Notes: generated from the sequence alone by a model not told the origin. Shown: positions 1 to 20,504, numbered from the stretch's first letter. The stretch is DNA of 64,000 nt from an uncultured Veillonellaceae bacterium (GCA_963805085.1 CAWDTA010000002.1:1888001-1952000), one strand, 5' to 3'. Made by a program: numbers and translations.

Positions 1-925
1 ATATTATAAAGGAGCAGATTTGAGCTGGCTACCTGCGATGGAATCAAAAAAATATACTTTTAAAAACTCAAGCGGCACAACACAAGACGAAATGACGACG
101 ATGAAAGAATTAGGAGTTAATGCAGTTAGATTGAGACTATGGGTTAATCCTTCAAGTGACGTCTACAGTGGTATGTGCAATGAAACTCAAGTAATTGGAA
201 TGGCAAAACGAGCAAAAGCTATAGGTGCTGATATCATGCTAGATCTACATTATAGCGATACATGGGCAGATCCAGGAGCCCAGACAATACCAGCTGCTTG
301 GTCAACTTGTACTACGATGTCTGCATTAGGGACGCAGGTGTACAATTATACTTATCAAGTGATGACTAATATGAAAAATGCCGGTGTAACGCCTACTTGG
401 GTACAAATAGGCAATGAGATTAATTCAGGTTTAATATGGCCTCTCGGAAATACTTCAAATGGTTTCGCCAATGTTGCATGGCTAATTAACTCTGGTTATA
501 ATGCTGTTAAAGCTGTAAGTAGCTCAACTAAATGCATCGTCCATTTAGCAAATGGCTATAATAATACTACTTTTAGATGGTTTTTTGATGGGCTGAAAGC
601 AGCTGGTGGCAATTGGGATATTATAGGGATGTCACTTTATCCGACGGCAAGTAATTATACTACCTATAACAGCCAATGCTTAACGAATATGAAGGACATG
701 CTATCTAGATATGATACAAATGTAGTGATTGCTGAAGCTGGGTTTGCCTATAATGATCCAACAACTGCTGCTAAATTTCTTGCACAGCTTAAAACTAATG
801 TTAAAGCTGTAGGAGGTGTCGGAATATTCTATTGGGAACCTGAATGTTATAATTGGAACAGTTATGGTATGGGCGCAACAGATCCCTCGACTAAAAAACC
901 AACAAGTGCTATGCCTGCATACTAA
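1..925 (+). CDS. GH53 endo-beta-1,4-galactanase (5' end lies outside the window)
   Basis: Frame is open back to base 2 (YYKGADLSWL, the GH53 N-terminal motif); VRLRLWVNP, DLHYSDTWADPG, VQIGNEI, GIFYWEP motifs. Confidence 0.9.
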   Translation, partial: YYKGADLSWLPAMESKKYTFKNSSGTTQDEMTTMKELGVNAVRLRLWVNPSSDVYSGMCNETQVIGMAKRAKAIGADIMLDLHYSDTWADPGAQTIPAAWSTCTTMSALGTQVYNYTYQVMTNMKNAGVTPTWVQIGNEINSGLIWPLGNTSNGFANVAWLINSGYNAVKAVSSSTKCIVHLANGYNNTTFRWFFDGLKAAGGNWDIIGMSLYPTASNYTTYNSQCLTNMKDMLSRYDTNVVIAEAGFAYNDPTTAAKFLAQLKTNVKAVGGVGIFYWEPECYNWNSYGMGATDPSTKKPTSAMPAY

Positions 926-1041
926 GAAGTTCAATCTAAACATAATGTAATTTCTTGTAATTTAATAAAACTATATGCTTCTATTATTCTGAGGGCGTTA
1001 TGCCTTATTAGATAAGGTATATGTAGGCATATTGAAGCCAT

Positions 1042-1080
1042 TAATCACTATGGAGTTACAGCTCTGTAGTGATTTTTTTC
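1042..1080 (+). terminator. Intrinsic terminator after GH53
   Basis: AATCACTA...TAGTGATT stem followed by T-run. Confidence 0.65.
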
Positions 1081-1136
1081 TTGTTAATGTTCATTATACA
1101 GGATGATTCAGATTAGGTGATCATTTTCTAGTTAAA

Positions 1137-1174
1137 CCCGTTTAAAAAAGAATATTAAATAAATGTATATAAGT
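1137..1174 (+). promoter_or_regulatory. Alternative-sigma promoter-like motif, copy 1
   Basis: CCCG-TTTAAA(1141-1146)-N17-TGTATA(1164-1169)TAAGT; one of four copies in 1-5.3 kb. Confidence 0.7.
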
Positions 1175-1261
1175 AAAATCTAATATATAGGGAAAAAAAT
1201 AATGAAAAAAATAGTTCCTTAGCTATATTGGTTTTTAGAAATTTAGAAGGGTTGTGTAAAA

Positions 1262-2263
1262 ATGTCTACTTATAATGTAACGACTTACTCAGATCTAAAA
1301 AGCAAGGTGGCAGCAGCAGGATCAGGAGATACAATTTATATTGGAGCTTCGATTACTTGTACTGCTCAAATCGTATTGAGTGGTAGTGGTATCACTCTAA
1401 CGGCAAAAAGCGGAGTAACCCCTGTTCTTGATTTTTCGGCTATATCCAGTATTAACTCAGGTTCAGCTGGTATTGGAATCTATGTAACAGGCAGTAATAA
1501 TACGATTAGTGGCCTTATCGTACAAAAAGCTGGTGATAATGGACTGAAAATTGAAGGTGCTAGTAATACGGTGCAAAACTGTATCTTCCGTTATAACGGA
1601 GATACAGGTCTACAGATATCCAAGTCTACAGCTAAAAAAAATACGATCAAGTATTGTGATTCCTATCGAAATTGTGATAAAGCAACGAGTGGTGGAAATG
1701 CGGACGGCTTTGCCTGTAAGTTGAGTGCTGGTGCAGGCAATTCATTTATTGGTTGCCGAGCTTTCCAAAATTCTGATGATGGTTGGGACAGTTATGATAT
1801 GAATAATGATGTTACATATACCGATTGTATTACTTGGCATAATGGAGACGCGAGTATAACTACTTATGCTGGTAATGGCAATGGTTTTAAACTTGGCTCT
1901 AAAGGTGCCACTGGAAAACGGACAATGACTCGCTGTATCGCGTGGGATACAAAATATAGCGGTAAAAAAGGATTTGATCAAAACAATGGGGTTGGAGTAG
2001 TAACATTAACCAACTGCCTGTCTTTTGACAATGTGATTGGCTATCAGCTGGATGATGCTACAAGTCTTACTATGACAAACTGTAGAGAGTTTAATTGCAC
2101 TTCCTCCGATTCTCTTCCTTCTGGTGTAACTGTTACGAAGATTACGGATACAGCTAAACAAGCTTCAATTCGTAGTGCAATTAAAACTGCGTGCAATAAA
2201 ATTTTATCCAATTGCGAAAATAATATCATTACTGGAGCAATCACTTTGAATATATGGAGCTAA
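1262..2263 (+). CDS. Polysaccharide lyase family 9 (pectate lyase PelL-like, beta-helix), no signal peptide
   Basis: GGNADGFACKL, NSDDGWD, GNGNGFKLG PL9 motifs. Confidence 0.85.
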   Translation: MSTYNVTTYSDLKSKVAAAGSGDTIYIGASITCTAQIVLSGSGITLTAKSGVTPVLDFSAISSINSGSAGIGIYVTGSNNTISGLIVQKAGDNGLKIEGASNTVQNCIFRYNGDTGLQISKSTAKKNTIKYCDSYRNCDKATSGGNADGFACKLSAGAGNSFIGCRAFQNSDDGWDSYDMNNDVTYTDCITWHNGDASITTYAGNGNGFKLGSKGATGKRTMTRCIAWDTKYSGKKGFDQNNGVGVVTLTNCLSFDNVIGYQLDDATSLTMTNCREFNCTSSDSLPSGVTVTKITDTAKQASIRSAIKTACNKILSNCENNIITGAITLNIWS

Positions 2264-2332
2264 TAGCTAAAAATAGTTATTACAGGCGTTGCAAAAAGTT
2301 TTGGAAAAATAATTAGAAAATACTATGAGTTT

Positions 2333-2358
2333 GCCCCTAGCTTAGGCTAGGGGTTTTT
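2333..2358 (+). terminator. Intrinsic terminator
   Basis: GCCCCTAGC-TTAG-GCTAGGGGT stem plus T-run. Confidence 0.8.
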
Positions 2359-2595
2359 AATTTTTATCAGGTTAATTTCAAACTTGAAAGCGTGTATGAA
2401 AAATAATGTATGTAAAAATTGCAATGAAAAATATGATACGGTATATATTTTGTCACAACAGAGATCTTTAAATAATCGGAAAGTAAAGGGGCGATTGTAT
2501 AGTTAAGATACGTTATGAAATATAGAAAAATTCACCTATATTAATCGTTAATTTACTTTTTTTAGTAGTAAAATTACCATTTTAGACAAGACATA

Positions 2596-2624
2596 TTGAA
2601 ATAATAGAAAATTGTAATTATAAT
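2596..2624 (+). promoter_or_regulatory. SigmaA-type promoter upstream of the sigma-factor unit
   Basis: TTGAAA-N17-TATAAT; AT-rich context lowers specificity. Confidence 0.45.
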
Positions 2625-2759
2625 TAAATATAACTGGTAAAAATGTAAAAATATTCAATCAAATAAGACGTAAAATATGAAATTATCAAATAATTTTTAT
2701 ATTTGTACATTTTGAGAACAAATTGCATGGGGGTAATGAAAAAAAAGTAAAAGTAAAAT

Positions 2760-2791
2760 TAGCTGCTTAATTTAGAGCGGCTTTTTGTTTT
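2760..2791 (+). terminator. Terminator-like hairpin between the sigmaA promoter and motif copy 2
   Basis: AGCTGCTT-AATTT-AGAGCGGCT stem followed by TTTTGTTTT. Confidence 0.55.
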
Positions 2792-2863
2792 CTTTAGTAG
2801 CTGATGGCGAAATTAAGTTAGAGATAACGTCGAAAAAAATTTTTTTATATAATTGTGGGTTGA

Positions 2864-2901
2864 CCCGTTTAAAAAAGCATCTTTAAAAAATGTATATAAG
2901 T
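2864..2901 (+). promoter_or_regulatory. Alternative-sigma promoter-like motif, copy 2 (upstream of the sigma gene)
   Basis: CCCG-TTTAAA(2868-2873)-N17-TGTATA(2891-2896)TAAGT. Confidence 0.7.
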
Positions 2902-2986
2902 AGAAGCCAATATTTAACAGAATAAATTAAAAGTATTTTGTTATAGCGGCTTTACAAAAACATTAAAAATTTGGGAGGCGATTTAA

Positions 2987-3187
2987 ATGGTATACAATCA
3001 AGATTTATCTAGAAATAGTGGGGTGAATGGTAGAAAAGACTTGATCGTATCACAAGAAAACCAACTTATTTTTGTTAATAGTAAGAATATTTCTAAAAAT
3101 GTCAAATTTACGTGCGTTATTAAGAAAGCGTTTACTAATAGTATAAAAAATAATAGAAATGCAGAAAAATCATGGGTACAGTGTTAG
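2987..3187 (+). CDS. 66-aa ORF, possibly the frameshifted N-terminus of the sigma factor
   Basis: Strong SD (GGGAGG); starts MVYNQDLS like the GH51 (MSYNQDLS); overlaps the sigma ORF in another frame. Confidence 0.5.
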   Translation: MVYNQDLSRNSGVNGRKDLIVSQENQLIFVNSKNISKNVKFTCVIKKAFTNSIKNNRNAEKSWVQC

Positions 3188-3678
3188 ATTTTGAACCACT
3201 AGTGCGTAAATACACTTGGAATAAATCAGAGGATGTAAGGGCGGAAGCCTGGTTAGCAGTAGTGGAGGCAACAAAATTATATGATTCTACGAAGGGAGTA
3301 CCATTTGCTGGTTATGTAAAAAGCAAAGTCAAATATTCAGTTTGGAATATGGTTAGGAAGCAGCAAAGGAAATGCCAGTATGAAGTGGCTATTGAGGGGG
3401 ATGGTGATAATGAAGAAAATAGTCTACTTGATACATTACAAAGCAGCACAAATGTTTCAGATGAGGTTGAGAAGAAGTTTTTGACTGAAGAATTACAAGC
3501 AGCTATTAATATGCTGCCAGAACGTCAGCGGATTGCTGTACTTAAAACTGTAGCTTGGAACTTTAGTCAAACAGAAACTGCAGCAGCATTGGGGGTAACG
3601 CCACAAGCAATATTTAATTTGCGCAATCGTGGGTTGGCCCGTTTAAAAAAAACGGCCTGTATGAATGTATATAATTAA
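3172..3678 (+). CDS. Short sigma-70-family RNA polymerase sigma factor (regions 2 and 4 only)
   Basis: Region 2 FEPLVRKY...AWLAVVEATKLYDSTKGVPFAGYV; region 4 LPERQR...SQTETAAALGVTPQAIFNLRNRGLARLKK. Confidence 0.85.
   Translation: MGTVLDFEPLVRKYTWNKSEDVRAEAWLAVVEATKLYDSTKGVPFAGYVKSKVKYSVWNMVRKQQRKCQYEVAIEGDGDNEENSLLDTLQSSTNVSDEVEKKFLTEELQAAINMLPERQRIAVLKTVAWNFSQTETAAALGVTPQAIFNLRNRGLARLKKTACMNVYN
3638..3674 (+). promoter_or_regulatory. Alternative-sigma promoter-like motif, copy 3 (inside the sigma gene 3' end)
   Basis: CCCG-TTTAAA(3642-3647)-N18-TGTATA(3666-3671)TAA. Confidence 0.65.
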
Positions 3679-3824
3679 AGCCAATATACATAGAAAAATT
3701 TAATGAAAAGGTTCTGGACTATTGAAAGCAATAAGAAAGGTGTATGTTGATGGGGAAACGATAAAGAGTTTCATATATATTAAAGTTTCTTTTTTTAATT
3801 AATAAAGTAATAGGAGTGTTGATT

Positions 3825-5009
3825 ATGAGTGATTTATACGTATCTAATTCAGGAAGTGCCAGTAATGCAGGTACTGTGAGTAGCCCGCTTACTCTTGTTG
3901 CGGCAATTACAAAGGTTGCTGCAGGCGGGACAATTTACATGATGTCAGGAACATATAGTTATGCTACTCAAATAACGATTGAGCGTGGCAATAATGGAAC
4001 TTCAGGTAGTTACAAAAGCATTAAGCCATACAACTCTGGAACCGTAATCTTAGACTTTTCTTCCCAGACGTATGGAGATCCTTCGAGTGTAAGTAATCCT
4101 AGAGGACTGCAGATCAACGGCAATTACTGGCATATAAAAGGACTTGCTGTAAAAGGCGCTGCTGACAATGGTATTTTTATCGGAGGGAGCTATAACAAAA
4201 TAGAACTTTGTGAAACTTATGCGAATAGAGACTCAGGCTTGCAGTTAGGAAGATATATCTCCACCGCCGCAGAAAGTGAATGGCCAGCATATAACGAAAT
4301 CCTGAATTGTACTTCTCATGATAATTCTGACCCTGATAATGGCGAGGATGCGGATGGTTTTGCTTGCAAGCTGACTACAGGTGAAGGCAACGTATTTAGC
4401 GGTTGCATTTCCTATAATAATGTTGATGACGGTTGGGATCTATATACAAAATCTGCCACTGGTGCTATTGGCGTTGTAACTATAAAAGACTGTGTAGCCT
4501 ATAATAACGGTGTAACTTCTAGTGGGACAAGTACGGCAAACAGTGATGGTAATGGATTTAAATTAGGTGGTGACAAAGTAGCTGTTAACCATATAGTGAA
4601 AAATTGTATAGCCTTCAATAACAAAAAGCATGGATTTACCTATAATAGTAACCCAGGCTCTATCACGTTAACAAATTGTACAAGCTATAACAACGGAACT
4701 ACATCAGGAAGCAATTTTTCTTTTGATAAAGGTATGCATGTATTTACTAATTTATTATCTTATAAAGCTAGTTCAAGTGATAAGACAAGCGGTACTGATG
4801 TAAATAGTTCAAATGTATGGTGGAAAAATTCAAAAACTACAAATGCAAATGGGTTAGCTTGTAATGATGCAGACTTTGTTAGCCTTACTCCAGCCGTAAC
4901 TAGAAATACGGATGGTTCCATTAATTTAGGAAACTTTTTAAAACTTGCTGCTGGTAGTGACCTGATTGGTGCAGGCACTCCAAGTGGCACTAATATTGGA
5001 GCTAGATAG
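3825..5009 (+). CDS. Polysaccharide lyase family 9 (pectate/rhamnogalacturonan lyase), no signal peptide
   Basis: GEDADGFACKL, NVDDGWDLY, DGNGFKLGG motifs; ATG at 3825 follows AGGAG. Confidence 0.88.
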   Translation: MSDLYVSNSGSASNAGTVSSPLTLVAAITKVAAGGTIYMMSGTYSYATQITIERGNNGTSGSYKSIKPYNSGTVILDFSSQTYGDPSSVSNPRGLQINGNYWHIKGLAVKGAADNGIFIGGSYNKIELCETYANRDSGLQLGRYISTAAESEWPAYNEILNCTSHDNSDPDNGEDADGFACKLTTGEGNVFSGCISYNNVDDGWDLYTKSATGAIGVVTIKDCVAYNNGVTSSGTSTANSDGNGFKLGGDKVAVNHIVKNCIAFNNKKHGFTYNSNPGSITLTNCTSYNNGTTSGSNFSFDKGMHVFTNLLSYKASSSDKTSGTDVNSSNVWWKNSKTTNANGLACNDADFVSLTPAVTRNTDGSINLGNFLKLAAGSDLIGAGTPSGTNIGAR

Positions 5010-5055
5010 ATTTATATAATTTGGATGGTATGTCAAATTCGATTTTTCTCAACAT

Positions 5056-5088
5056 ACCCGGTATCTTAGGACGCCGGGTTTTATTTTA
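5056..5088 (+). terminator. Intrinsic terminator
   Basis: ACCCGGT...GCCGGGT stem plus T-run. Confidence 0.7.
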
Positions 5089-5139
5089 TATCTAGTTTAA
5101 TGACCAATTCGGGACAATACTTCGAATTTTTTATTTTTA

Positions 5140-5177
5140 CCCGTTTAAAAAAATTTTTTAAATCAATGTATATAAGT
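5140..5177 (+). promoter_or_regulatory. Alternative-sigma promoter-like motif, copy 4
   Basis: CCCG-TTTAAA(5144-5149)-N17-TGTATA(5167-5172)TAAGT. Confidence 0.7.
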
Positions 5178-5266
5178 ATAAGCCAATATACAAGGAAAAA
5201 ACACAATTTGATAAGAGTTCCTTAGCTATATTGGCTTTTATTAGGAATTTCTGGAGGCGATTTTAA

Positions 5267-7777
5267 ATGTCTTACAATCAAGATTTATCTGCAGATAAGA
5301 CAGATATTAATAATTGTAAAAACGGGGTTGCTTTGGAACTGGAAGTAAATACAGATCAGATAGGTATAAACATTAGTCCTGATCTTTATGGAATATTTTT
5401 TGAAGATATAAATCATGCTGCAGATGGTGGCTTATATGCAGAATTAATTCAAAATCGCTCTTTTGAGGATGATTCAACAACACCTAAACATTGGTCATTA
5501 GTAAAGACAGGAACAGCTGAAGGTACAATGACTCTTGATGATACTGTTCTTTTAAACAGCGTTCAGTCGAGATCGTTACGTCTTGATGTAACAACGGCAG
5601 ACCCAGCTGGAAGCATTGGTATAGCAAACGAAGGTTATTGGGGGATAAGCGTAAAAAAAGGAATACAATATAATTTATCATTCTTTGCTAAAGCTAGCAG
5701 TGATTTTTCAGGAGATATAACAGCTAGTCTCCAAAGCGCTGCTGGACAAACTGTTTATGGACAGATAGTACTATCAAGTATAGCTACAGAGTGGGAAAAG
5801 TATATTGTGACAATTACTTCAAACGGAACTGACCAAAATGCAGTATTTGTATTATCAATAAATACAGTAGGCTCAGTATGGTTTGATGTGGTCTCGCTGT
5901 TTCCGCCGACGTTTAATAATAGACCTAATGGACTAAGAGAAGATCTAGTAAACATGATAAAAGAGATGAAGCCTAGGTTTATGAGATTTCCAGGAGGATG
6001 CTTTGTTGAAGGAGCGGCTATGGCAACTGCGTTCAGGTGGAAAACTACGATTGGAAAGATAGAAGAAAGAGCAGGACATCAAAATCTTTGGGGTTACCAT
6101 ACAACTGATGGTATGGGATATCATGAATTCCTGCAACTTTCTGAAGACCTTGGTGCAGAACCATTGTATGTTATCAATATTGGGATAGCCCACAAAGATA
6201 ACATCCCGCTGGAGGAACTTGATTCTTGGGTACAAGAGGCTCTTGATGCTATAGAGTATGCAAATGGGGATATTACAACAACATATGGTGCGATGAGAGC
6301 AGCCAATGGTCATTATGAATCTTTTAATTTAAAATATATTGAAATCGGTAATGAAAATAATCAACATAGCACCACGGATAACAGAAGTAATCTTTATGGT
6401 GACAGATATATCAAGTTTTATAATGCGATAAAGAATAAGTATCCCGAAATATATACGATAGGCAATGTTGAAGCATGGGGGACAGATACACCTTCATGGC
6501 AATATTCACATCCAGTGGAATTGGTTGACGAGCACTATTATAGAGGGACACAATGGTTTATCAATAAGGCTAATAAGTATGACAGTTATGATAGAAACAG
6601 TCATAATATTTATGTAGGAGAATATGCGGTTACTACGACTCTTGACTGTGGAAAAGGAAATTTAAATGCAGCTATAGGGGAAGCCGCTTTCATGACAGGA
6701 CTTGAAAAAAATTCTGATATTGTAAAAATGGCTTCTTATGCACCATTATTGGTTAATACAAATGATCGAGCGTGGAATCCGGATGCAATTGTTTACAATG
6801 CTTACGATGTGTATGGAACACCATCTTATTATGTACAAAAAATGTTTGCCAACAACCTAGGTAGTTTTATTTTACCTACAACGTTAAAATTTTTGAATAG
6901 TACTACGGATACTACTTCTACTTCGGCTAGGCAGATTGTGGGACAAGTAGGAATTGGCAGCTGGGATACAGCAGTGAGTTATAATAATGTTTCAGTTACG
7001 AAAAATAGTGATAGCAGTATTTTCCTAACGAATGATTTTTCAGAAGATGCACCTAACTGGAAGGTGATAAGTGGTACTTGGAGTCTAACGTATAATCAAA
7101 CCAATACTACTGTAGAGCCTGGAATGATAGTTGCTGGAAGTAGTGATTGGAATAATTACACACTGGAGCTAACAGCGAAGAAGATGAGTGGCAGCGAAGG
7201 AATGATGATTTACTTTGGATTTTTAGATGGTGATAATTCTTATGATTTAAATCTTGGCGGGTGGAAAAATACTCTGCATGCTATACAAAAAAATGATAAT
7301 GGAAGCACATCATTACTTGCTAGTCAAGCCGGATCGATTAAAGCAGGTCAAAGTTATAAAATTAAGGTAGTCGTTTCTGGAACAAATATTAAGGCTTATT
7401 TGGATGACCAATTATTATTTGATGTAACTGATTCATCGCCATTAAAACCAGCTACTCGTGATCCATTATATTTTGTCACAAGTAAGGATACTGAGTCAGG
7501 AGATATTATCATGAAAGTAGTAAATCCTAACGACAAAGATGGTAAGGCTGTGATAAGAATTAACGGAAAAGATAAAATTTTAGGCGGGACAGCAAGCGTG
7601 CTCACTTCAAATAATATTGCCGATGAAAATTCATTTGCAAACCCATTAAAAGTAGTTCCTGTTGACAGTCAATTTGTAAGTTGTGGTGAATCAAACCAAT
7701 TTAACTATATATTTTCTAAGAATTCGATAACTGTATTAAGATTAGAAACGCATGGAAATCATATAATAATTAAATAA
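5267..7777 (+). CDS. GH51 alpha-L-arabinofuranosidase with accessory beta-sandwich domains, no signal peptide
   Basis: GIFFEDINHAADGGLYAELIQNRSFE, RFPGGC, EIGNEN, VDEHYY, YVGEYA, MASYAPL. Confidence 0.92.
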   Translation: MSYNQDLSADKTDINNCKNGVALELEVNTDQIGINISPDLYGIFFEDINHAADGGLYAELIQNRSFEDDSTTPKHWSLVKTGTAEGTMTLDDTVLLNSVQSRSLRLDVTTADPAGSIGIANEGYWGISVKKGIQYNLSFFAKASSDFSGDITASLQSAAGQTVYGQIVLSSIATEWEKYIVTITSNGTDQNAVFVLSINTVGSVWFDVVSLFPPTFNNRPNGLREDLVNMIKEMKPRFMRFPGGCFVEGAAMATAFRWKTTIGKIEERAGHQNLWGYHTTDGMGYHEFLQLSEDLGAEPLYVINIGIAHKDNIPLEELDSWVQEALDAIEYANGDITTTYGAMRAANGHYESFNLKYIEIGNENNQHSTTDNRSNLYGDRYIKFYNAIKNKYPEIYTIGNVEAWGTDTPSWQYSHPVELVDEHYYRGTQWFINKANKYDSYDRNSHNIYVGEYAVTTTLDCGKGNLNAAIGEAAFMTGLEKNSDIVKMASYAPLLVNTNDRAWNPDAIVYNAYDVYGTPSYYVQKMFANNLGSFILPTTLKFLNSTTDTTSTSARQIVGQVGIGSWDTAVSYNNVSVTKNSDSSIFLTNDFSEDAPNWKVISGTWSLTYNQTNTTVEPGMIVAGSSDWNNYTLELTAKKMSGSEGMMIYFGFLDGDNSYDLNLGGWKNTLHAIQKNDNGSTSLLASQAGSIKAGQSYKIKVVVSGTNIKAYLDDQLLFDVTDSSPLKPATRDPLYFVTSKDTESGDIIMKVVNPNDKDGKAVIRINGKDKILGGTASVLTSNNIADENSFANPLKVVPVDSQFVSCGESNQFNYIFSKNSITVLRLETHGNHIIIK

Positions 7778-7921: not shown

Positions 7922-8869
7922 TTATGTGCATTGACCGCAACTGTTGCAATCACTGGAAGTGCAGTTGCTTTTTTCGGTACGTTTCGTGGACATAATCGTA
8001 ACCTTAATATCGGACAACGGATAACGATGGTCAGTGGAGTCGGTAATGATGACATCGGTCTTTGTAAAGGTTAAGGTAAGGGGCAAAGTGATCGTGTCGT
8101 TGTCATCAAGGGGATTCATTTTTTCAATGGGTTTGATTAAATCGACGGTTTCTTTTGTTGTGAGCATGAACTGATCGATCGTTTTTATGGATACAATATC
8201 CCCAGTTTCACTGAATTGGAGAGAATTACGGTCAGCGTGGATGCCAATGCTTTGCGGATCAAAAGCATTGATTTTGCCAATTGGCGTTGTTACTGGTGTC
8301 GGTCTAGCCGGTTCCACGGAGGTTATGTTGCCTTGCTGATCCAAGGAAAAGCCGGTTTTTACAGCAATAGTACCAACTGGTGTTGCAAGGTCTATCACTT
8401 CTGCTGGCTGCAGAGTTAAACTATATAGTTGTCCTGTTTCATAAAAATGCAGGCTGATAATTTTGGCAGTGAATTTTGCAAAATCGAAATCGAAGGTAAA
8501 GGGGCGCGCTAATTCACTTTCTTGGCTTTCTGACCAATAGCCACTGAGCCTGCCATTTAAGGGGAAGATTCTTTTGAGGGCACCTGTCGGGTAAAAAGTG
8601 ATGAATTCAGCGGGGATTTTGCCAAATGGCGTTTGGATTTGGGTGCTTGCTTCGAGAGAAATGCTTTTTAAATCCCCTGATTCATAAAAGGTTAGGGAAT
8701 TGATATATTTACGGCGCAAGTCATCATAATGATACTGCGGTACTAAGTCACCAACCTTTGTTTTGATAATGTTTTTTTCTTGAAGAATGCAACCCGCTAA
8801 GGTACCATTGTTATGATATTCTTCACGAGTACAATCCATGAGTGTACCGTAGTTTGTTTCAATGTTCAT
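7922..8869 (-). CDS. Hypothetical protein with internal beta repeats and a Cys-rich tail
   Basis: Repeated (F/Y)Y.xG.L.SI.L and I.TP.G.I motifs; C-terminal CTSSDCNSCGQC; 12 bp downstream of anfO. Confidence 0.8.
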   Translation of the reverse strand: MNIETNYGTLMDCTREEYHNNGTLAGCILQEKNIIKTKVGDLVPQYHYDDLRRKYINSLTFYESGDLKSISLEASTQIQTPFGKIPAEFITFYPTGALKRIFPLNGRLSGYWSESQESELARPFTFDFDFAKFTAKIISLHFYETGQLYSLTLQPAEVIDLATPVGTIAVKTGFSLDQQGNITSVEPARPTPVTTPIGKINAFDPQSIGIHADRNSLQFSETGDIVSIKTIDQFMLTTKETVDLIKPIEKMNPLDDNDTITLPLTLTFTKTDVIITDSTDHRYPLSDIKVTIMSTKRTEKSNCTSSDCNSCGQCT

Positions 8870-10005: not shown

Positions 10006-10848
<843 letters not shown>

Positions 10849-10900
10849 GGTTAAATAGCAAATTTAAGTAAAAGAGCAATTTTGAGAGGAGCTAACTATT

Positions 10901-11224
10901 ATGATCATGATTAGAGCCATTGTTAGACCGGAGAAATCTAATGTTGTATTATCGGAGCTTTCTGATGCTGGGTATTCTGGGGTAACCAAAGAAGAAGTAT
11001 ATGGTCGCGGTCGCCAAAAAGGAATCATTGTCGGTGAGGTGCATTATGATGAATTACCGAAAGAACTTTTAATCATTTTTGCTAATGATGAAGATAAAGA
11101 TGATATTATCAAAATCATTTTGAAAAATGCAAAAACAGGTGAGGGCAATTTCGGTGATGGACGTATTTTTGTGAGTCCAGTACTGGAAGCATATACGATC
11201 AGTTCAGGCAAAGCTGGCTTATAA
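10901..11224 (+). CDS. nifI1: PII-family nitrogen regulator NifI1
   Basis: PII motifs GRGRQKG, GDGRIFV; position between nifH and nifD. Confidence 0.9.
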   Translation: MIMIRAIVRPEKSNVVLSELSDAGYSGVTKEEVYGRGRQKGIIVGEVHYDELPKELLIIFANDEDKDDIIKIILKNAKTGEGNFGDGRIFVSPVLEAYTISSGKAGL

Positions 11225-11243
11225 GAGAAGGGGTGGCTATATA

Positions 11244-11648
11244 ATGAGAGAAATTATGGCTTTTATACGGATGAATATGGTAAACCCAACCAAGCAGGCA
11301 CTTGCCAAAGCTGGGTATCCGGCGTTTAACTTTTCAAAAGCTGTAGGCCGTGGCAAGAAGCCACTGGCTACAAAAGCAATCGAAGTCATCATGGGCAATG
11401 CCGGTTCTGTACCTGCCGATTCGATTGGTGAACATTTGTCGGAAGGGACGCGGCTCGTATCAAAACGTGCCTTTACTCTAATTGTTGATGATGAGCAAGT
11501 AGAATTGGCAGTGAAAACGATTATCAAGGTAAATCAGACAGGAAATCCTGGCGATGGTAGAATCTTTGTTATGCCAGTGATGGAAGGCTACAATATTAGA
11601 ACAGGTGAATGTCGTGAGCGAGAAAGCGATTTGACAGATAGGAGGTAA
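11244..11648 (+). CDS. nifI2: PII-family nitrogen regulator NifI2
   Basis: Long T-loop PII, GNPGDGRIFV; second PII gene after nifH. Confidence 0.9.
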   Translation: MREIMAFIRMNMVNPTKQALAKAGYPAFNFSKAVGRGKKPLATKAIEVIMGNAGSVPADSIGEHLSEGTRLVSKRAFTLIVDDEQVELAVKTIIKVNQTGNPGDGRIFVMPVMEGYNIRTGECRERESDLTDRR

Positions 11649-13246
11649 TGGCTGTGGATAAACGTACGAAAATTTTAGATAAATATTCTGCACGGGTTTT
11701 TAAAAACCGTAAAGATCATATTATTGAGCTAGAAGATGTTGCGAACGCGCAAAGCATCGCAGCCAATAGCCGAGCAATACCAGGGGTTATGACAAATCGC
11801 GGCTGTTGTTATGCTGGCTGTAAAGGTGTTGTTTTAGGCCCATTAAAGGATGTTGTAGTTATTACACATGGCCCAATTGGTTGTGGCTTCTATACTTGGG
11901 GAACACGTCGTAATAAAGCAAAAGCAAGTGATAATGGCAAGAACTTTATTGAATATAGTTTTTCCACTGATATGCAAGAACCAGATATCGTATTTGGTGG
12001 GGAAAAGAAATTAAAGCAAGCAATTACCGAAGCGGTTGAGATTTTCAAACCAGAATGTATTATGATTTGTTCCACCTGTCCAGTTGGGCTAATCGGTGAC
12101 GATATTCATGCAGTAGCGACTTGGACAGAAGAAACATATAAAATAAAATGCGTTGCTTATAGTTGTGAAGGTTATAAAGGGGTCAGTCAATCAGCTGGTC
12201 ACCATATCGCCAATAATAGTTTAATGAAATATGTTATTGGTACAGGGGATAAGGCGCCAACACAAAAATTCTCCATAAATATTTTGGGTGAATATAATAT
12301 TGGTGGCGATGGCTGGGAAACTTCTCGTATCTTAAAAAGAATTGGTTATGAAGTGATTTCGGTATTTACTGGTGATGGTAGTTATGAAGAAATAAAAAAT
12401 GCGCATACAGCAAACTTAAATTTAGTGCAATGTCATCGTTCTATCAACTACATTGCAGAAATGATGAAAACAAAGTATGGCATTGATTGGATCAAAGTTA
12501 ACTTTATCGGTGTCGATGAAACAATTCGTTCCTTGCGCGAAATGGCAACGTATTTTGGTGATGCTGATTTAACCGCACGGACAGAAGCTGTTATCGAAGA
12601 TGAGCTTGCAAATATTGCTGATGATATGGCATATTATAAATCAAAATTGCAAGGGAAAAAGGCTGGTTTATTCTGCGGTGGTTCACGTTCCCATCACTAT
12701 CAAAATTTACTTGCTGACCTAGGCGTAGAAACCGTCGTAGCCGGCTACGAATTTGCGCATCGCGATGATTATGAAGGCAGGGAAGTGCTTCCTACCATCA
12801 AAACAGATGCCGATAGTAAAAATATCGAAGAAATGACAGTTACACCAGATGAAAGACATTTCCGCTTACTTTTGACCCAGGAAAAATTCGAACAATTGTC
12901 TAAGGCAATTGATTTAGAAGCGTATGCTGGGATGATTAAAGATATGGGTAATGGTACAGTGGTAATCGACGATTTTAATCATTATGAAACTGAACAATTA
13001 ATAGAATTATTCAAACCTGATATTTTCTATTCAGGCATTAAAGATAAATATATTATTCAAAAAATCGGAGTTGTATCGCGGCAGTTGCATTCCTATGATT
13101 ATAGCGGCCCTTATGCTGGATTTAAAGGAGCAGTTAATTTCGCTAGAGATACGACGATGGGAATTTTCACACCTGCGTGGAATTATGTAACTCCACCATG
13201 GCGCACGCTGCCAACGCTAGAAGGAAAGATTGGAGGTGAGGAGTAA
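11648..13246 (+). CDS. nifD: Nitrogenase MoFe protein alpha chain (clostridial group II)
   Basis: RGCCYAGCKGVV, HGPIGC, VQCHRS and QLHSYDY cofactor ligands; group II insertion. Confidence 0.97.
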   Translation: MAVDKRTKILDKYSARVFKNRKDHIIELEDVANAQSIAANSRAIPGVMTNRGCCYAGCKGVVLGPLKDVVVITHGPIGCGFYTWGTRRNKAKASDNGKNFIEYSFSTDMQEPDIVFGGEKKLKQAITEAVEIFKPECIMICSTCPVGLIGDDIHAVATWTEETYKIKCVAYSCEGYKGVSQSAGHHIANNSLMKYVIGTGDKAPTQKFSINILGEYNIGGDGWETSRILKRIGYEVISVFTGDGSYEEIKNAHTANLNLVQCHRSINYIAEMMKTKYGIDWIKVNFIGVDETIRSLREMATYFGDADLTARTEAVIEDELANIADDMAYYKSKLQGKKAGLFCGGSRSHHYQNLLADLGVETVVAGYEFAHRDDYEGREVLPTIKTDADSKNIEEMTVTPDERHFRLLLTQEKFEQLSKAIDLEAYAGMIKDMGNGTVVIDDFNHYETEQLIELFKPDIFYSGIKDKYIIQKIGVVSRQLHSYDYSGPYAGFKGAVNFARDTTMGIFTPAWNYVTPPWRTLPTLEGKIGGEE

Positions 13247-14610
13247 TGCTAGACTTAACTCCAAAAGAAATAATTGAACGTAAAGGGCTAAGGATTAATC
13301 CTTGCAAAACTTGTCAACCGGTTGGTGCGATCTATGCGGCGCTTGGTGTGCATAAATGTATGCCACATAGCCATGGTTCACAAGGTTGCGTATCCTTTCA
13401 TCGTATGTTTTTATCCAGACATTTTAAAGAGCCAGCAATTGCTTCCACGAGCTCTTTCACCGAAGGAACTTCAGTATTTGGCGGCGGTAGTAATGTAAAA
13501 ACAGCAGTTAAAAATGTTTTCGACATTTATAATCCTGATATTATTGCGATTCACACCACTTGTTTGAGTGAAACGATTGGTGATGACCTCAACACCTATA
13601 TTCAACAGATGGAAATACCAGAAGGAAAAATCGTGTTGCATAGTAATACGCCAAGTTATGCTGGTTCGCATATCAGCGGTTATTTCAATATGATGAGTGG
13701 TTTCATCAAATATTTAGCGAAGAATACCGGAGTAGATAATGGTAAAATCGGTATTTTCCCTGGTTTCACCAATCCCGGCGATATGCGTGAAATGAAGAAA
13801 ATCGCTAAACTATTAGGTGCTGATTTTACGATGTTCCCTGACACCAGTGGTGTTATGGATGCACCGATGACTGGCAACTATGAAATGTATCCAAAAGGTG
13901 GTACAACGATTCCTGAAATCATTGGTTTAGGTGACTGTAAAAAAGTATTGGCACTCGGTGAACTTACTAGTATGGAACCAGCAATGGAGTTAAAACGCAA
14001 ATGCGAAGTTGATTTCGATTGTTTACCACTTCCGATTGGAATCGAAGCAACCGATGCATATGTAACAGTATTGTCACATTTCACCAAGAATGAAGTGCCA
14101 TACGCCTTAGAAGAGGAACGTGGACAATTGGTTGATATCATGTTGGATTCCCATGCGTATTATGATAAGAAGACCGTAGCAATTTATGGTGATCCTGATA
14201 CCGTTCTTGGTATTACAAGTTTGGTATTAGAAATGGGCATGATTCCTAAATATGTGCTTACTGGTACGCCAAATGAAAAGTTTACAAAAAAAGCAAATGC
14301 CTTATTTGAGAAATTTGGCGTAACCGATTGTAAAGCAAAAGCGTCGGGAGATTTATTTGAACTTCATCAATGGATCAAAAATGAACCAGTAGATTTATTG
14401 ATTGGTAGTTCCTATGGAAAACAGATTGCAAGAGCAGAGGATATTCCGTTTGTTCGTGCTGGTTTCCCAATCCTTGACCGCTATGTGCATTCTTATATGC
14501 CGATTGTCGGCTACCGAGGTGCCATTCGTTTGGTTGAACTCATTAGCAATGCATTAATGGATCGCCGTGATCGCGATTGTGAAGATGAAGATATGGAACT
14601 TGTAATGTAA
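13246..14610 (+). CDS. nifK: Nitrogenase MoFe protein beta chain
   Basis: NPCKTCQPVGA, HGSQGC, TTCLSETIGDD. Confidence 0.97.
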   Translation: MLDLTPKEIIERKGLRINPCKTCQPVGAIYAALGVHKCMPHSHGSQGCVSFHRMFLSRHFKEPAIASTSSFTEGTSVFGGGSNVKTAVKNVFDIYNPDIIAIHTTCLSETIGDDLNTYIQQMEIPEGKIVLHSNTPSYAGSHISGYFNMMSGFIKYLAKNTGVDNGKIGIFPGFTNPGDMREMKKIAKLLGADFTMFPDTSGVMDAPMTGNYEMYPKGGTTIPEIIGLGDCKKVLALGELTSMEPAMELKRKCEVDFDCLPLPIGIEATDAYVTVLSHFTKNEVPYALEEERGQLVDIMLDSHAYYDKKTVAIYGDPDTVLGITSLVLEMGMIPKYVLTGTPNEKFTKKANALFEKFGVTDCKAKASGDLFELHQWIKNEPVDLLIGSSYGKQIARAEDIPFVRAGFPILDRYVHSYMPIVGYRGAIRLVELISNALMDRRDRDCEDEDMELVM

Positions 14611-14640
14611 AAAAATGTGATGTACAATAAGTAGAGAAAG

Positions 14641-14694
14641 CAAAATAGACTCTTGATACAAAGATGTATTTCATTTGTTCAAGGGTCTATTTTG
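14641..14694 (+). other. Stem-loop between nifK and nifE (stabiliser or partial terminator)
   Basis: CAAAATAGACTCTTGA...TCAAGGGTCTATTTTG inverted repeat. Confidence 0.6.
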
Positions 14695-14724
14695 CTTATT
14701 TTTGTATTTAAAGGAGGGCTAGCG

Positions 14725-16065
14725 ATGGAAGCAAGGATACTTGAGGAGAGAAAACAATCCATTATGGTAAAAGATTTTTGTTGTAGTGGGGATGGAAAGA
14801 GTATTACCTGTGAAAAAGAAAGTGTTTCGGGGGCTGTTAGTCAACGCGCTTGTGTATATTGTGGTGCCCGCGTAGTGCTCAATCCGATTACAGATGCCTA
14901 CCATATCGTTCATGGACCAATTGGCTGTGCAAGTTATACTTGGGATATTCGTGGCAGCCTTTCTAGTGGCAGCGATTTATATCGCAATAGTTTTTCAACA
15001 GATTTAAGAGAAAGAGATGTTATTTTTGGTGGTGAAAAAAGATTAACTGCCGCCATTGATGAAATCGTAGCCAATCATTCACCTAAATTAATTTTCGTGT
15101 ATGCGACCTGTATCGTGGGTGTTATTGGCGATGATATAGAAGCTGTCTGTAAGCAGGCAACGCAAAAGTATAATATCTGTGTAGTTCCAGTGAAAGCACC
15201 AGGTTTCTCTGGTACCAAGACACTTGGCTATAAAATGGCCTGTGATGCTTTAATGCAAGTGATAAAGCCACATGCAAAACCAGAACAAGCGAAAAAAGGA
15301 ATTAATATTTTAGGGGACTTTAACCTGGCTGGTGAAATGTGGATTATTAAAAATTATTTTAAGAAAATCGGGGTCAATGTTGTCTCAACGATCACTGGTG
15401 ATGCTTCTTACGATACCTTGATCAAAGCTTCTCAGGCAGAGCTCAATATCGTGCAATGTGCAGGGTCGAGTACCTATTTGGCCAATCGCATGGAAGATGA
15501 ACTGGCGATACCTTTTTTAAAGGTAAGCTTTTTCGGCGTAGAAGATACGACCAATTCTTTAATGCGGGTTGCCTATGCCATTGGCGATGCAGAGGTCATT
15601 CGCAAGGCACAAGCTTTTACGGAAGTAGAAGCAGCAAAACTACAAGATTTTTTAACAAAATATCGTCGTAATCTCCTCGGTAAAAAAGCAGCAATCTATG
15701 TTGGCGGCGGCTTTAAAGCCATTTCGTTGATTCGTCAGTTTAATGAAATGGGAATCGAAACCGTTGTCGTTGGGACACAGACGGGTAAACAAGAAGATTA
15801 TGCGGTCATTCAAAGTTTGGTGAATGAACATACCGTGATTTTAGATGATGCCAACCCAGCTGAACTAGAAACTTTCATGAAAGAAAAAGGTGCAGATATT
15901 TTGGTTGGTGGCGTCAAAGAGCGGCCGCTTGCTTATAAACTAGGCATTGCCTTTTGTGATCACAATCATGAACGCAAACATGCCTTAGCGGGTTATGAAG
16001 GGGTAATCAATTTTACCAAAGAAATTAACCTGACCATCAACAGTCCAGTTTGGCAGTTATTATAG
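14725..16065 (+). CDS. nifE: FeMo-cofactor scaffold NifE
   Basis: QRACVYCGAR, HGPIGCASY; ATG 14725 after AAGGAGG. Confidence 0.95.
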   Translation: MEARILEERKQSIMVKDFCCSGDGKSITCEKESVSGAVSQRACVYCGARVVLNPITDAYHIVHGPIGCASYTWDIRGSLSSGSDLYRNSFSTDLRERDVIFGGEKRLTAAIDEIVANHSPKLIFVYATCIVGVIGDDIEAVCKQATQKYNICVVPVKAPGFSGTKTLGYKMACDALMQVIKPHAKPEQAKKGINILGDFNLAGEMWIIKNYFKKIGVNVVSTITGDASYDTLIKASQAELNIVQCAGSSTYLANRMEDELAIPFLKVSFFGVEDTTNSLMRVAYAIGDAEVIRKAQAFTEVEAAKLQDFLTKYRRNLLGKKAAIYVGGGFKAISLIRQFNEMGIETVVVGTQTGKQEDYAVIQSLVNEHTVILDDANPAELETFMKEKGADILVGGVKERPLAYKLGIAFCDHNHERKHALAGYEGVINFTKEINLTINSPVWQLL

Positions 16066-16095
16066 TAAAGATGAAAAAAGAGGAGGCTGGTTTCA

Positions 16096-18723: not shown

Positions 18724-18747
18724 GTTAATTTTAGTGAGGTGGGAGAA

Positions 18748-19701
18748 ATGATATGTATCACAGATAATACGCTGGCTTGTCTTGATGCATACGAGGCAAC
18801 GCCAAAAGAGCTGCATGAGCTATTAGAGTTATTATTAACTTTGCCGATTCGTTCGATTGAAATGTCGATCCAGGCTTATGAAAAGCTTATTTCCCTTGCA
18901 CCACTGCCTGAATTTGAAAATTATTTGTTGAAAATAAATAATTTATGTGAATTGAAAAAATACCAAGGGTTTGCTGGTTATCTGTTTCCGGCGTCTAGTT
19001 TTGGCAATGTTGGCAATGCTACCTATGAAATTAATTTTAAAAATGATCAAGATATCGGTTATAATGAAGAATGTATCCAAGGTTTGCGGATGATTGGTTT
19101 TGCTGATCGTATCTGCACAGACGTTGCCAGTGAATTTAAACATATTTTATCGACAAAAATGAAATTTGAAATTTGTCCGCAAAATGATTTTTTCTGTGCT
19201 ACTGCCTTAGCGGTGGAATGGTGTCGGTTAGGGGGGGAAAAGCTGGTAGCTAGTTTTACTGGTATCGGTAATCAGGCGAGTTTAGAGGAAGTGCTGCTAG
19301 CTTTACACCTCGAAAAACAACAGGAACTTACAGAGAATATCAGTTGTTTTGAACGGATGAAACAAGTATTTGAGCAGATTACTGGTAAAAAAATAGCAAA
19401 AAACAAAGCCATTATTGGCGAGGAAATTTTTTGCGTGGAAGCTGGTATTCATGTCGATGGCATTGTGAAAAACCCTAAAATTTATGAGCCTTATCCACCA
19501 GAACTCGTAGGTAGTAAACGGCGCGTGATCATGGGGAAACATTCTGGCAAGAGTGCTATTTTAGCTAAATTAAGTGAATTGAAAATTGCCAAAGCGAGTG
19601 TGGATGTAGAAAAATTATTGCTAGCTGTAAAGCAAAAAAGTGTAGAAAAACAACAGAGCTTAACTGATGAGGAATTTATTGAGCTGATCAAGGTGGTGTA
19701 G
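18748..19701 (+). CDS. nifV: Homocitrate synthase omega subunit (degenerate N-terminal barrel)
   Basis: EAGIHVDG...YEPYPPELVG...MGKHSGK C-terminal homocitrate-synthase motifs; split nifV as in Clostridium pasteurianum. Confidence 0.8.
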   Translation: MICITDNTLACLDAYEATPKELHELLELLLTLPIRSIEMSIQAYEKLISLAPLPEFENYLLKINNLCELKKYQGFAGYLFPASSFGNVGNATYEINFKNDQDIGYNEECIQGLRMIGFADRICTDVASEFKHILSTKMKFEICPQNDFFCATALAVEWCRLGGEKLVASFTGIGNQASLEEVLLALHLEKQQELTENISCFERMKQVFEQITGKKIAKNKAIIGEEIFCVEAGIHVDGIVKNPKIYEPYPPELVGSKRRVIMGKHSGKSAILAKLSELKIAKASVDVEKLLLAVKQKSVEKQQSLTDEEFIELIKVV

Positions 19702-19703
19702 CA

Positions 19704-20504
19704 ATGAAAGAGCCGCGACATATTGTTGATACTACCTTGCGAGATGGCGAGCAAAGTCCTGGACTCGCTTTTCGTAAGCGGGATAAGTTAACCATTGCAA
19801 AGTTACTAGATGACGCCAACGTTTATCAAATTGAGGCTGGAATTCCGGCAATGGGCAATTTAGAAAAGGAAGCAATCCTAGCAATAAAAGATAGCTGTAA
19901 ACATTCGCTCATATCCACCTGGAATCGTATTAATAAAGCCGATATTCAGCATTCGTTTGATTGTCAGCCAGATCTGATTCATATTAGCGTTCCCGTATCA
20001 ACGGCGCAGATCTATGAAAAACTGCGCAAAGATAAAACTTGGCTCAAAGAAAATATGGTTGCTTGCGTCGAATTTGCCAGAGAAAAAGGCTATCCAGTAA
20101 CCGTTGGCTTTGAAGATGCCTCAAGGGCGGAGCTAGAATTTATGTTAGAGTTGGCCAAAATCCTGAAACGTTATGAAGTTCGTTATATTCGCTTTGCTGA
20201 TACAGTTGGGATTTTAACGCCTGCAAGTACAGAGCAAAAGATCAAAGCAATCATTGAGGATACAGGAATGGAGATTGAATTTCATGCCCATAATGATCTC
20301 GGCATGGCGGTGGCCAATTCCATTTCAGCGGCAAAAGCTGGCGCGAAATTTATTGATACAACCATTGCTGGAATTGGTGAACGTACTGGTAATTGTGATT
20401 TTATGCAATTTATTTACACGGCGAGTACCTTATATGATATTTCTACCGATTTCAGAGCTGCGCAAGCGGTGACAAAGCAAGTAGAAAAGATCGTGCGAAA
20501 ATAA
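19704..20504 (+). CDS. nifV: Homocitrate synthase alpha subunit
   Basis: DTTLRDGEQ, HAHNDLGMA, GIGERTGN. Confidence 0.88.
   Translation: MKEPRHIVDTTLRDGEQSPGLAFRKRDKLTIAKLLDDANVYQIEAGIPAMGNLEKEAILAIKDSCKHSLISTWNRINKADIQHSFDCQPDLIHISVPVSTAQIYEKLRKDKTWLKENMVACVEFAREKGYPVTVGFEDASRAELEFMLELAKILKRYEVRYIRFADTVGILTPASTEQKIKAIIEDTGMEIEFHAHNDLGMAVANSISAAKAGAKFIDTTIAGIGERTGNCDFMQFIYTASTLYDISTDFRAAQAVTKQVEKIVRK

Follow-up and report, generated by a model that had tools for sequence, protein, structure and literature searches.

Closest described systems

In Staphylococcus aureus, DNA damage induces the gene for the sigma factor SigS, which in vitro transcribes sroAB, encoding DUF1659 and DUF2922 proteins (bioRxiv 10.1101/2022.10.19.512975). 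In Bacillus subtilis, the atypical sigma factor SigO-RsoA (YvrI-YvrHa) transcribes yvrJ (PMC8103513). The group 5 sigma factors carry the marker SRQ in region 4.2 (PMC4031146). In Yersinia entomophaga, one regulator couples a lysis cassette to cargo proteins that lack signal peptides (the RoeA-YenLC system; PMC10847048). Here we analyze a short sigma-70 factor and a promoter-like motif from a 64,000-nucleotide stretch of DNA ("the window") of an uncultured Veillonellaceae bacterium (GCA_963805085.1 CAWDTA010000002.1:1888001-1952000). Positions without a contig name are counted from the window's first letter.

Our main conclusion, to which we assign a probability of about 0.58, is that the locus belongs to a phage-captured sigma regulon that was domesticated for lysis-type enzyme release, with the short sigma factor as a local amplifier. 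An earlier reading of this DNA (the original prediction) had proposed a dedicated, self-activating sigma factor, similar to TcdR and BotR, for a pectin regulon. Three other kinds of system bear on the comparison. YvrJ genes often accompany DUF1659-DUF2922 pairs; prophage morons are self-contained units of promoter, gene, and terminator; and the ChiR-ChiWXYZ system of Serratia reportedly exports chitinase via a lysis cassette under one regulator. In the open-access literature, with supplements outside the search, we found no description of the promoter, leader, or regulon discussed below.

A promoter motif in the window and across the genome

The motif CCCG-TTTAAA-N17/17/18/17-TGTATATAA occurs four times on the plus strand, at positions 1137, 2864, 3638, and 5140, with spacers of 17, 17, 18, and 17 nucleotides, as had been claimed. 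The core TTTAAA-N16-19-TGTATA has five matches in the window, versus a mean of 0.23 and a maximum of 2 across 100 shuffles. Copy 1 (1137..1172) has its putative -35 box, GTTTAA, at 1140-1145 and its putative -10 box, AAATGT, at 1161-1166. Copy 2 (2864..2899) lies ahead of the unit formed by a small upstream open reading frame (uORF) and the sigma gene, and it is found at the same place in G001, which is a genome from the same genus, and in Pelosinus baikalensis. Copy 3 (3638..3674) lies within the final codons of the sigma gene (those for ARLKK). Copy 4 (5140..5175) was found by both pattern and matrix scans.

As the original prediction had it, there is no full copy elsewhere in the window; indeed, the complete CCCG form has only these four copies in the 4.2-Mb source genome (G000). 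Because CCCG is local and matches the sigma gene's own codons, we do not count it towards the consensus. Once it is dropped, the motif proves to be spread over the source genome, with 18 pattern matches versus 1 for the reversed pattern. A matrix scan, whose matrix was trained on 18 of the 20 sites that it reports, found 20 sites with at least 28 bits, while the reversed genome had none at 23 bits or above. A weaker fifth local copy lies just outside the window, ahead of the gene for a GH53 enzyme (C2:1887865). The sigma factor can hardly be "dedicated" to a pectin locus, as had been proposed, given that about 20 copies in the genome stand before genes with tail-fibre-like, FN3, protease, mannanase, or lysis products. 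The -35 element is TTTAAA in 18/18 seed sites; its fifth position is A or T in relatives and, in the rows that we read, never C. The conserved -10 core is (G)AATGT, and not TGTATA as first thought.

Several other readers or origins of the motif were considered. A housekeeping-type promoter was rejected: a scan with that consensus misses the four copies and finds no excess of matches (39 versus 31.9 +/- 6.7). Sigma-28 was rejected as well: the leader's GCCGATAT-like text belongs to a hairpin, as its 5' arm, and the spacing is wrong. SigH, which shares GAAT at -10 with the motif and has a different -35, was set aside. That copy 2 is a decayed 3' end of a sigma gene was not established (its upstream alignment scores 48, versus a maximum of 50.5 for 300 random windows).

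The source genome also encodes a separate UviA/TcdR-like sigma factor (C3:38609-39127, minus strand), with a weak match to the BotR model TIGR03209 (38657-39067), that groups with UviA. It adjoins three tandem paralogs of unknown function and a motif-driven 570-amino acid gene. This protein is disfavored as the reader of the motif: across genomes, the motif tracks the DUF1659-linked family that is described next. Sequence comparisons support the view that the element has the properties of a -35/-10 promoter for the short sigma's family, which is in line with the original assignment, and it very probably is the promoter of this family of small sigma factors in Negativicutes.

A family of small sigma factors linked to DUF1659

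Relatives of the window's sigma factor are found in 38 of 41 genomes of Negativicutes (E 0.001), but many of these hits are other types of sigma factors. The close relatives have about 190 amino acids and often end with RLKK...GMY, which is encoded by CGTTTAAAA...GGAATGTA. Based on gene coordinates, a family sigma is directly upstream of a DUF1659 gene in 16 of the 30 genomes with DUF1659. The window's sigma gene itself does not adjoin DUF1659. A loose core, GTT(T/G)A(A/T)-N15/16-(G)AATG(T/G), lies at most 75 bases from the DUF1659 start at 17 of 28 loci, including the one in the source genome; this pattern was picked after inspecting the sequences, and two loci with short flanks were left out. 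For comparison, the loose core has 179 matches genome-wide. The motif is retained where the sigma gene ends earlier or is unlinked, as in the source genome, which argues that the element is conserved as DNA and is not merely a coding artefact. This in turn suggests that copy 3, within the end of the sigma gene, represents the ancestral arrangement.

The source genome's full-length member (189 amino acids; C2:1808953) is 37% identical to the short sigma. It scores just 33 bits against PRK06759, which presumably is the family that contains SigS, versus a cut-off of 133; the window's gene is not listed at all. Among the 20 genomes with the hairpin cassette (see below), 18 have a match to the full-length sigma (E 1e-20), and only 3 have a second, short match; in G196, a short sigma is encoded at the cassette. 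The single hairpin match that we examined in G039 has no promoter. Genome G004 has 7 strict matches to the motif and no short sigma that we could find, and none of three virus records that are at least 90% complete encodes a relative of the sigma factor. Thus the expectation that the motif would be tied to the short sigma did not hold: the motif is also present in genomes, and in nearly complete prophage records, for which our searches gave no short sigma. As most of the genomes with the hairpin show only a full-length sigma, the chromosomal, full-length protein is likely to be the general reader of the motif.

The full-length sigma genes are themselves preceded by a conserved leader (L003:8880-8955 on C2 of the source genome). 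It contains the sequence GCGCTAA and a palindrome centred on CCGG, along with an overlapping hairpin that extends over the ribosome-binding site; by eye, this leader is present at 20 of 23 loci. This leader may be a switch for the whole regulon.

The short sigma factor and its upstream open reading frame

The short sigma (3172..3678, plus strand) has 168 amino acids and comprises regions 2 and 4, as supported by Pfam, by a match to TIGR02937 above its cut-off, and by alignment, structure prediction, fold search, and a phylogenetic tree. The alignment shows that it lacks the first helix of the 190-amino acid family members. Its predicted structure is a confident two-domain model (pLDDT 82) that matches sigma factor structures in a fold search. 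It has 16 intact relatives at 66-96% identity, and it is under purifying selection, with dN/dS between 0.14 and 0.25 over four comparisons. Broken copies of the short sigma are found in prophages of G034 (contigs C38 and C21), G040, G295, and the IMG/VR record G045. In a midpoint-rooted tree of 72 rows, without SigS and with UviA on a long branch, the window's protein lies in a 14-row clade of short forms (support 100/99) inside the DUF1659-linked family. Region 4.2 is nearly identical in the short and long forms (GVTPQA). From these comparisons, the 168-amino acid protein is best described as a shortened branch of the 190-amino acid, DUF1659-linked family.

Original claims of membership in group 5 do not stand. 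The window's sigma has GVTPQAI in region 4.2, with TPQ in place of the SRQ marker; it has no similarity to UviA (BLASTP E 5.4); and TIGR03209 does not match it, its only match in the source genome being the C3 protein described above. UviA and the C3 protein form a separate clade (100/99). No Clostridium plasmid is among the 52 records matched by the window's sigma, and annotated phages and plasmids yielded only weak, generic sigma matches.

The short sigma lacks a ribosome-binding site of its own. The 66-codon uORF (2987..3187, plus strand) has a strong one, its stop overlaps the start of the sigma gene, and its beginning resembles that of the gene for the GH51 enzyme. In the source genome, G001, and P. 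baikalensis alike, the uORF has the same length and overlap, although its sequence has drifted (dN/dS 0.73); by substitutions alone, the joint chance of keeping both frame and overlap is about 0.04. We infer that the uORF is probably a translational-coupling leader for the sigma. A run of five A (3165-3169) keeps the uORF and the sigma out of frame, and in the relative P0005 the two are fused in frame. Phase variation or frameshifting at this run is possible. Because a motif copy lies upstream of the short sigma, which is under purifying selection, self-activation is plausible, as was originally suggested.

A hairpin leader behind the motif

Each copy of the motif is followed by a hairpin, which is intact after copies 1 and 4 and partly decayed after copies 2 and 3. 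The intact 74-base hairpins (1172..1245 and 5175..5248, plus strand) begin directly below the -10 box and leave the ribosome-binding site uncovered. They score 64.8 and 69.7 bits with R1, our model of the hairpin, whose training set includes both. The hairpin behind copy 2 (2897..2960) is shortened; it was identified from RNA folds and is missed by R1 at E 0.05. The one behind copy 3 (3675..3740) is decayed, and a relative's contig has 10 extra bases there, inserted behind 3714. The GH53 gene has a hairpin as well, just upstream of the window (C2:1887897-1887968). Across 36 sequences, 89.2% of cells are paired, versus 35-50% in slid controls, and 30 cells have double changes, versus 14.3 in shuffles; the structure was derived from the same related sequences, so these figures are not a probability.

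R1 has 17 matches in the source genome and matches 20 of 151 genomes and 9 of 63 genera. Upstream of the new matches, the looser core is present in 27 of 28 cases (with one edge case dropped). The promoters of lysis cassettes and DUF1659 genes lack the hairpin. In a search of Rfam with window positions 900-5500, none of the 6 matches (E up to 5) came near its gathering threshold, and none was on the intact hairpins. Judging from its position, the hairpin probably is a 5' stabilizer of the mRNA.

The motif in phages and lysis cassettes

A scan of IMG/VR for the exact pattern found 13 stretches in 7 contigs. In these contigs and in the genomes G004, G027, G031, G034, G196, and G249, a prophage layout recurs: tail genes and a lysis cassette are followed by one or several units, each made up of the motif, the hairpin, and an accessory gene (with LamG, FN3-like, or tail-fibre-like products). 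The motif without the hairpin stands directly before the lysis cassette in G004 (a PF05105 holin and an amidase), in G027, and in one IMG/VR provirus. In G034 and G196, a short sigma is encoded between the lysis cassette and the cargo. Five of the six motif matches in G034 are at the 3' ends of short sigma copies, and two of these five are directly behind prophage lysis modules. In G027, a further motif copy stands before a prophage gene (L185:5298) whose product resembles, by eye, the late activators of the ArpU type (it has no Pfam match), so the late genes of phages might be linked to the family sigma.

The source genome has two candidate lysis cassettes. At C3:293264, a phage tail remnant ends with a strong motif copy followed by genes for a 57-amino acid protein with a single helix and for an endolysin. 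At C2:1774465, between four cassette genes, a degenerate motif is followed by a homolog of that small gene and by an amidase gene. The two endolysins match PHROGs with E 7e-33 and 8e-62. The C3 remnant (C3:273500-295000; L059, L005) has only tail genes (tail proteins, central fibre J, and a fibre), is interrupted by unrelated genes, and ends in the motif-driven, lysis-like cassette; in the 56 kb that we read, we saw no head genes. It is either a decayed prophage or a tailocin.

Cargo genes and their signal peptides

Four enzyme genes lie around the short sigma, all on the plus strand. The GH53 endo-galactanase (2..925; 310 amino acids; PF07745, E 7e-92) begins 8 bases before the window. The first PL9-like pectate lyase (1262..2263; 333 amino acids) matches PF22842 and, below the cut-off, NF041899. 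PL9-2 (3825..5009; 394 amino acids) is PelX-like and matches NF041903 with E 2e-54, also below the cut-off. The last is a GH51 alpha-L-arabinofuranosidase with a CBM4/9 module (5267..7777; 836 amino acids). By a simple hydropathy rule and alignment, which were used for all such calls, GH53 and PL9-2 have no signal peptide; the N-termini of PL9-1 and GH51 are not hydrophobic.

Elsewhere in the source genome, the first genes behind the motif encode tail-collar, gp53-like, and other tail-fibre-like proteins, FN3 proteins, a papain-family protease, a C39-like peptidase, GH26 and GH43 enzymes, an MCRA-family protein, and proteins of unknown function, along with a GH48 enzyme at a lower score. On C4 of the same genome, a pectinesterase, a GH28 enzyme, and a GDSL esterase have no core within 350 bases. 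With this mixed cargo, and with pectin enzymes that lack the motif, the gene set is not defined by pectin, so the term "pectin regulon" has to be dropped.

In 22 of the 25 first open reading frames behind the source genome's sites, the N-terminus is not hydrophobic. Among the 120 listed homologs of GH53 (of 5375), 119 have an N-terminal extension of at least 15 residues, which is signal-peptide-like in 112. The nearest of these are 80-88% identical and include a Clostridium protein; the window's GH53 begins at their cleavage site. PL9-2 similarly begins where its relatives' signal peptides end: among 120 listed homologs (of 3402), 102 have the extension and 78 have one that is signal-peptide-like. 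Its six closest listed homologs also lack a signal peptide, and the named ones are from Massilibacillus and Pelosinus. Both GH53 and PL9-2 are under purifying selection. GH48 also begins at its mature domain.

The source genome has a cellulase cluster (GH48-GH9-GH44, with CBM3 modules; L182, C2:1669001-1678000) and a xylanase cluster (GH62, GH11, GH10, GH30, and GH43; L008, C5:36001-56000). Both are unusual for a genome from the Negativicutes.

Conservation and surroundings of the island

The PL9-sigma-PL9 island and its motif copies are kept in G001 and P. baikalensis. G001 has no GH53 between uvrA and PL9-1, and the island of P. baikalensis has neither GH53 nor GH51, which suggests that gain and loss of cassettes proceeds one unit at a time. 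A named Massilibacillus record and P. baikalensis have relatives of the short sigma that are 94% and 80% identical to it, respectively, which places the window in a Negativicutes genome close to these two.

Terminator scans called hairpins after GH53 (1043..1074, plus strand), after PL9-1 (2333..2354, plus strand), and upstream of the sigma unit (2761..2782); a further terminator candidate at about 5056-5090 was seen by eye only. Upstream of the sigma unit there is also a near-consensus housekeeping promoter, TTGAAA-17-TATAAT (11/12; 2596-2624), which together with the hairpin at 2761-2782, behind it, might allow basal read-through or the production of a small RNA.

One metatranscriptome run contains 0.14 of the window's words. 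Its contigs from a relative that is about 90-94% alike cover 2-757, 1208-1884, 1973-2353, 2925-5022, 5132-5430, and 5414-7726. Some start just downstream of copies 1 and 2, and there is no coverage of 823-1096, 2467-2740, and 7947-8200. We draw nothing from these gaps because contigs from a single study give neither transcript starts nor strand and are possibly derived from DNA.

Farther along the window, open reading frames indicate a complete nitrogenase cluster at 10012-20504 (nifH, two PII genes, nifD, nifK, nifE, a fused nifN-nifB, and two nifV-like genes, with mod transporter genes). At 52318-59892 is a 2524-amino acid protein that resembles filamentous haemagglutinin and has a variable C-terminal end. 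From its sequence, it is probably a contact-dependent inhibition protein.

A proposed model and its alternatives

We propose that the ancestral target of the small-sigma family was the DUF1659-DUF2922 pair, with a putative promoter within the last codons of the sigma gene. Temperate phages would have captured this promoter, sometimes together with a sigma that was shortened at its N-terminus. They place it before lysis cassettes and, with the 5' stem-loop, before accessory genes, where it would drive their expression. In the lineage of the window, the cassette of promoter, hairpin, and ribosome-binding site appears to have been put before plant-wall enzymes that are secreted in relatives from Clostridium and Paenibacillus, and the signal peptides of cassette-driven enzymes would have been lost, as the alignments show for GH53 and PL9-2. 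When a family sigma becomes active, most likely the chromosomal 189-amino acid protein first, the enzymes, the short sigma, and the lysis cassettes would be made together. Both sigmas would read the motif, with copies 2 and 3 closing a positive feedback loop for the short one. The folded, cytoplasmic enzymes would then leave by holin/endolysin release, by analogy to type 10 secretion or to the clostridial loci that combine a sigma, a holin, and cargo. For this last part, lysis-type release of enzymes without signal peptides, we judge the odds to be a little better than even.

Several results weigh against this model. The genes for GH9, GH44, GH10, GH62, and GH30 (which either lack signal peptides or are candidates) have no core within 350 bases, with a hairpin match preceding GH30, and the GH43 and C39-like cargo proteins retain a signal peptide. 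The loose core was picked post hoc, and the stricter, preset pattern is found upstream of only 12 of 29 new hairpin matches. At 30 DUF1659 loci from outside the Negativicutes, the upstream sequences differ (by eye), and 4 of the 30 have a family sigma. In the source genome, the lysis genes are distant from the window's locus, among prophage remnants; the -10 of the second cassette is degenerate; and no spanin-like gene was recognised in either cassette. The 57-amino acid gene ahead of both endolysins has no Pfam match, and a slightly longer reading of it has only a weak match to a PHROG of unknown function, so the "holin" of this genome is proposed from its position and its one hydrophobic helix. 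(The PF05105 holin is found only in G004.) The genomes and the hairpin rows are related, so that our counts overstate their independence. Finally, the strict motif of P. baikalensis is confined to the island (2 matches), as would be expected if the short sigma acted locally.

Several alternatives have to be set against phage capture and lysis-type release. It seems unlikely that the promoter works as described without any dedicated release, so that the cassette would do no more than give strong, conditional expression of enzymes that act in the cytoplasm on imported oligosaccharides, or that are freed only when cells die from other causes, such as prophage induction or sporulation. The unlinked lysis genes are consistent with this, as is the fact that GH51 and exo-type PL9 enzymes can be cytoplasmic; also, other pectin enzymes of the genome have signal-peptide-like N-termini (by eye), and a TatC gene is present. 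However, the GH53, GH26, GH30, and GH48 families act on polymers, GH48 carries CBM3, and two unrelated enzymes, whose coding sequences are under purifying selection, have lost the signal peptide precisely at the cleavage site. We view as improbable the original idea of a dedicated, self-activating sigma, taken here to mean a protein that reads this locus only, by way of the TATATAA extension, with the DUF1659 and phage promoters left to the chromosomal sigma. The conservation of the island with its copies, the distribution of the strict pattern in P. baikalensis, and the single, selectively constrained clade of short sigmas speak for it. Yet the extended form of the motif occurs 7 times in G004, without a short sigma that we could find, and 14 times in the source genome beyond the CCCG copies, the short and long forms hardly differ in region 4.2, and the short sigma is not a group 5 protein.

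Even less credible is that the short sigma is a barely translated passenger of the captured promoter and that the chromosomal sigma alone matters. Such a passenger could well lack a ribosome-binding site and the first helix, and several of the prophage copies are indeed broken, but the low dN/dS in all four comparisons, the 16 intact relatives, the confident structural model, and the preserved frame and overlap of the uORF all argue otherwise. Returning to the regulon for enzyme release, a more elaborate version of it strikes us as speculative, with the odds somewhat against it: temperate phages captured the promoter that an undescribed Negativicutes sigma encodes in its own last codons, thereby putting their lysis and accessory genes under host sigma control, and supplied a common structured leader; this lineage then swapped signal peptides for the cassette and shortened the translationally coupled sigma into a bistable switch, giving a suicidal, enzyme-delivering subpopulation.

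If the model is correct, it provides a concrete promoter and regulon for the widespread sigma-DUF1659-DUF2922 module, whose function is almost unknown. It also suggests that temperate phages of diderm Firmicutes hand the control of lysis to an alternative sigma of the host, and it gives holin-type export a traceable origin, in which the promoter, leader, and lysis genes of a phage were kept and foreign secreted enzymes were added without their signal peptides. Pelosinus species that bear the island are culturable, so each step is testable.

Comparison with known systems

Like SigS, the proteins described here are small sigma factors with regions 2 and 4 that are tied to a DUF1659-DUF2922 pair, and the available text of the SigS report (bioRxiv 10.1101/2022.10.19.512975) mentions no phage or enzyme cargo, unlike what we find here. 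The family in Negativicutes is physically linked to DUF1659 and has one promoter motif in common with it; its likeness to SigS is one of description. In SigO-RsoA, the sigma is split into two proteins, whereas regions 2 and 4 are in one chain here. The cassette units resemble morons in that each is a single gene with its own promoter and terminator, inserted behind the lysis module of a temperate phage. Unlike morons, they share one alternative-sigma promoter and a structured leader, and the lysis cassette has the same promoter.

The regulon resembles type 10 secretion in that a single putative regulator would control a lysis-like cassette of phage origin together with numerous dispersed cargo genes whose products lack signal peptides. 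It differs in having a sigma factor as regulator and a diderm Firmicute as host. Moreover, every cargo gene has the common cassette of promoter and hairpin, the loss of signal peptides seems to be secondary, and no spanin was recognised in the source genome.

As for the group 5 sigma factors (TcdR, BotR, TetR, UviA, and TpeR), they have in common with our locus a short sigma on mobile DNA, upstream of cargo without signal peptides; in these systems the sigma is autoregulated, and they also include a holin and an endolysin (PMC4885068, PMC9527704). The -35 element is GTTTAA here and TTTACA there (PMC4031146). A motif copy precedes the short sigma and targets flank its gene, yet most of the copies are elsewhere in the genome; unlike in group 5, the targets are scattered, and the cargo comprises carbohydrate enzymes and phage proteins. 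The proposed likeness to TcdR and BotR therefore fares better as a functional analogy (a sigma, a holin, and signal-less cargo) than was claimed, and fails as a statement of membership. By analogy, then, this is a regulon that would work like that of a group 5 sigma factor or of type 10 secretion, without belonging to group 5.

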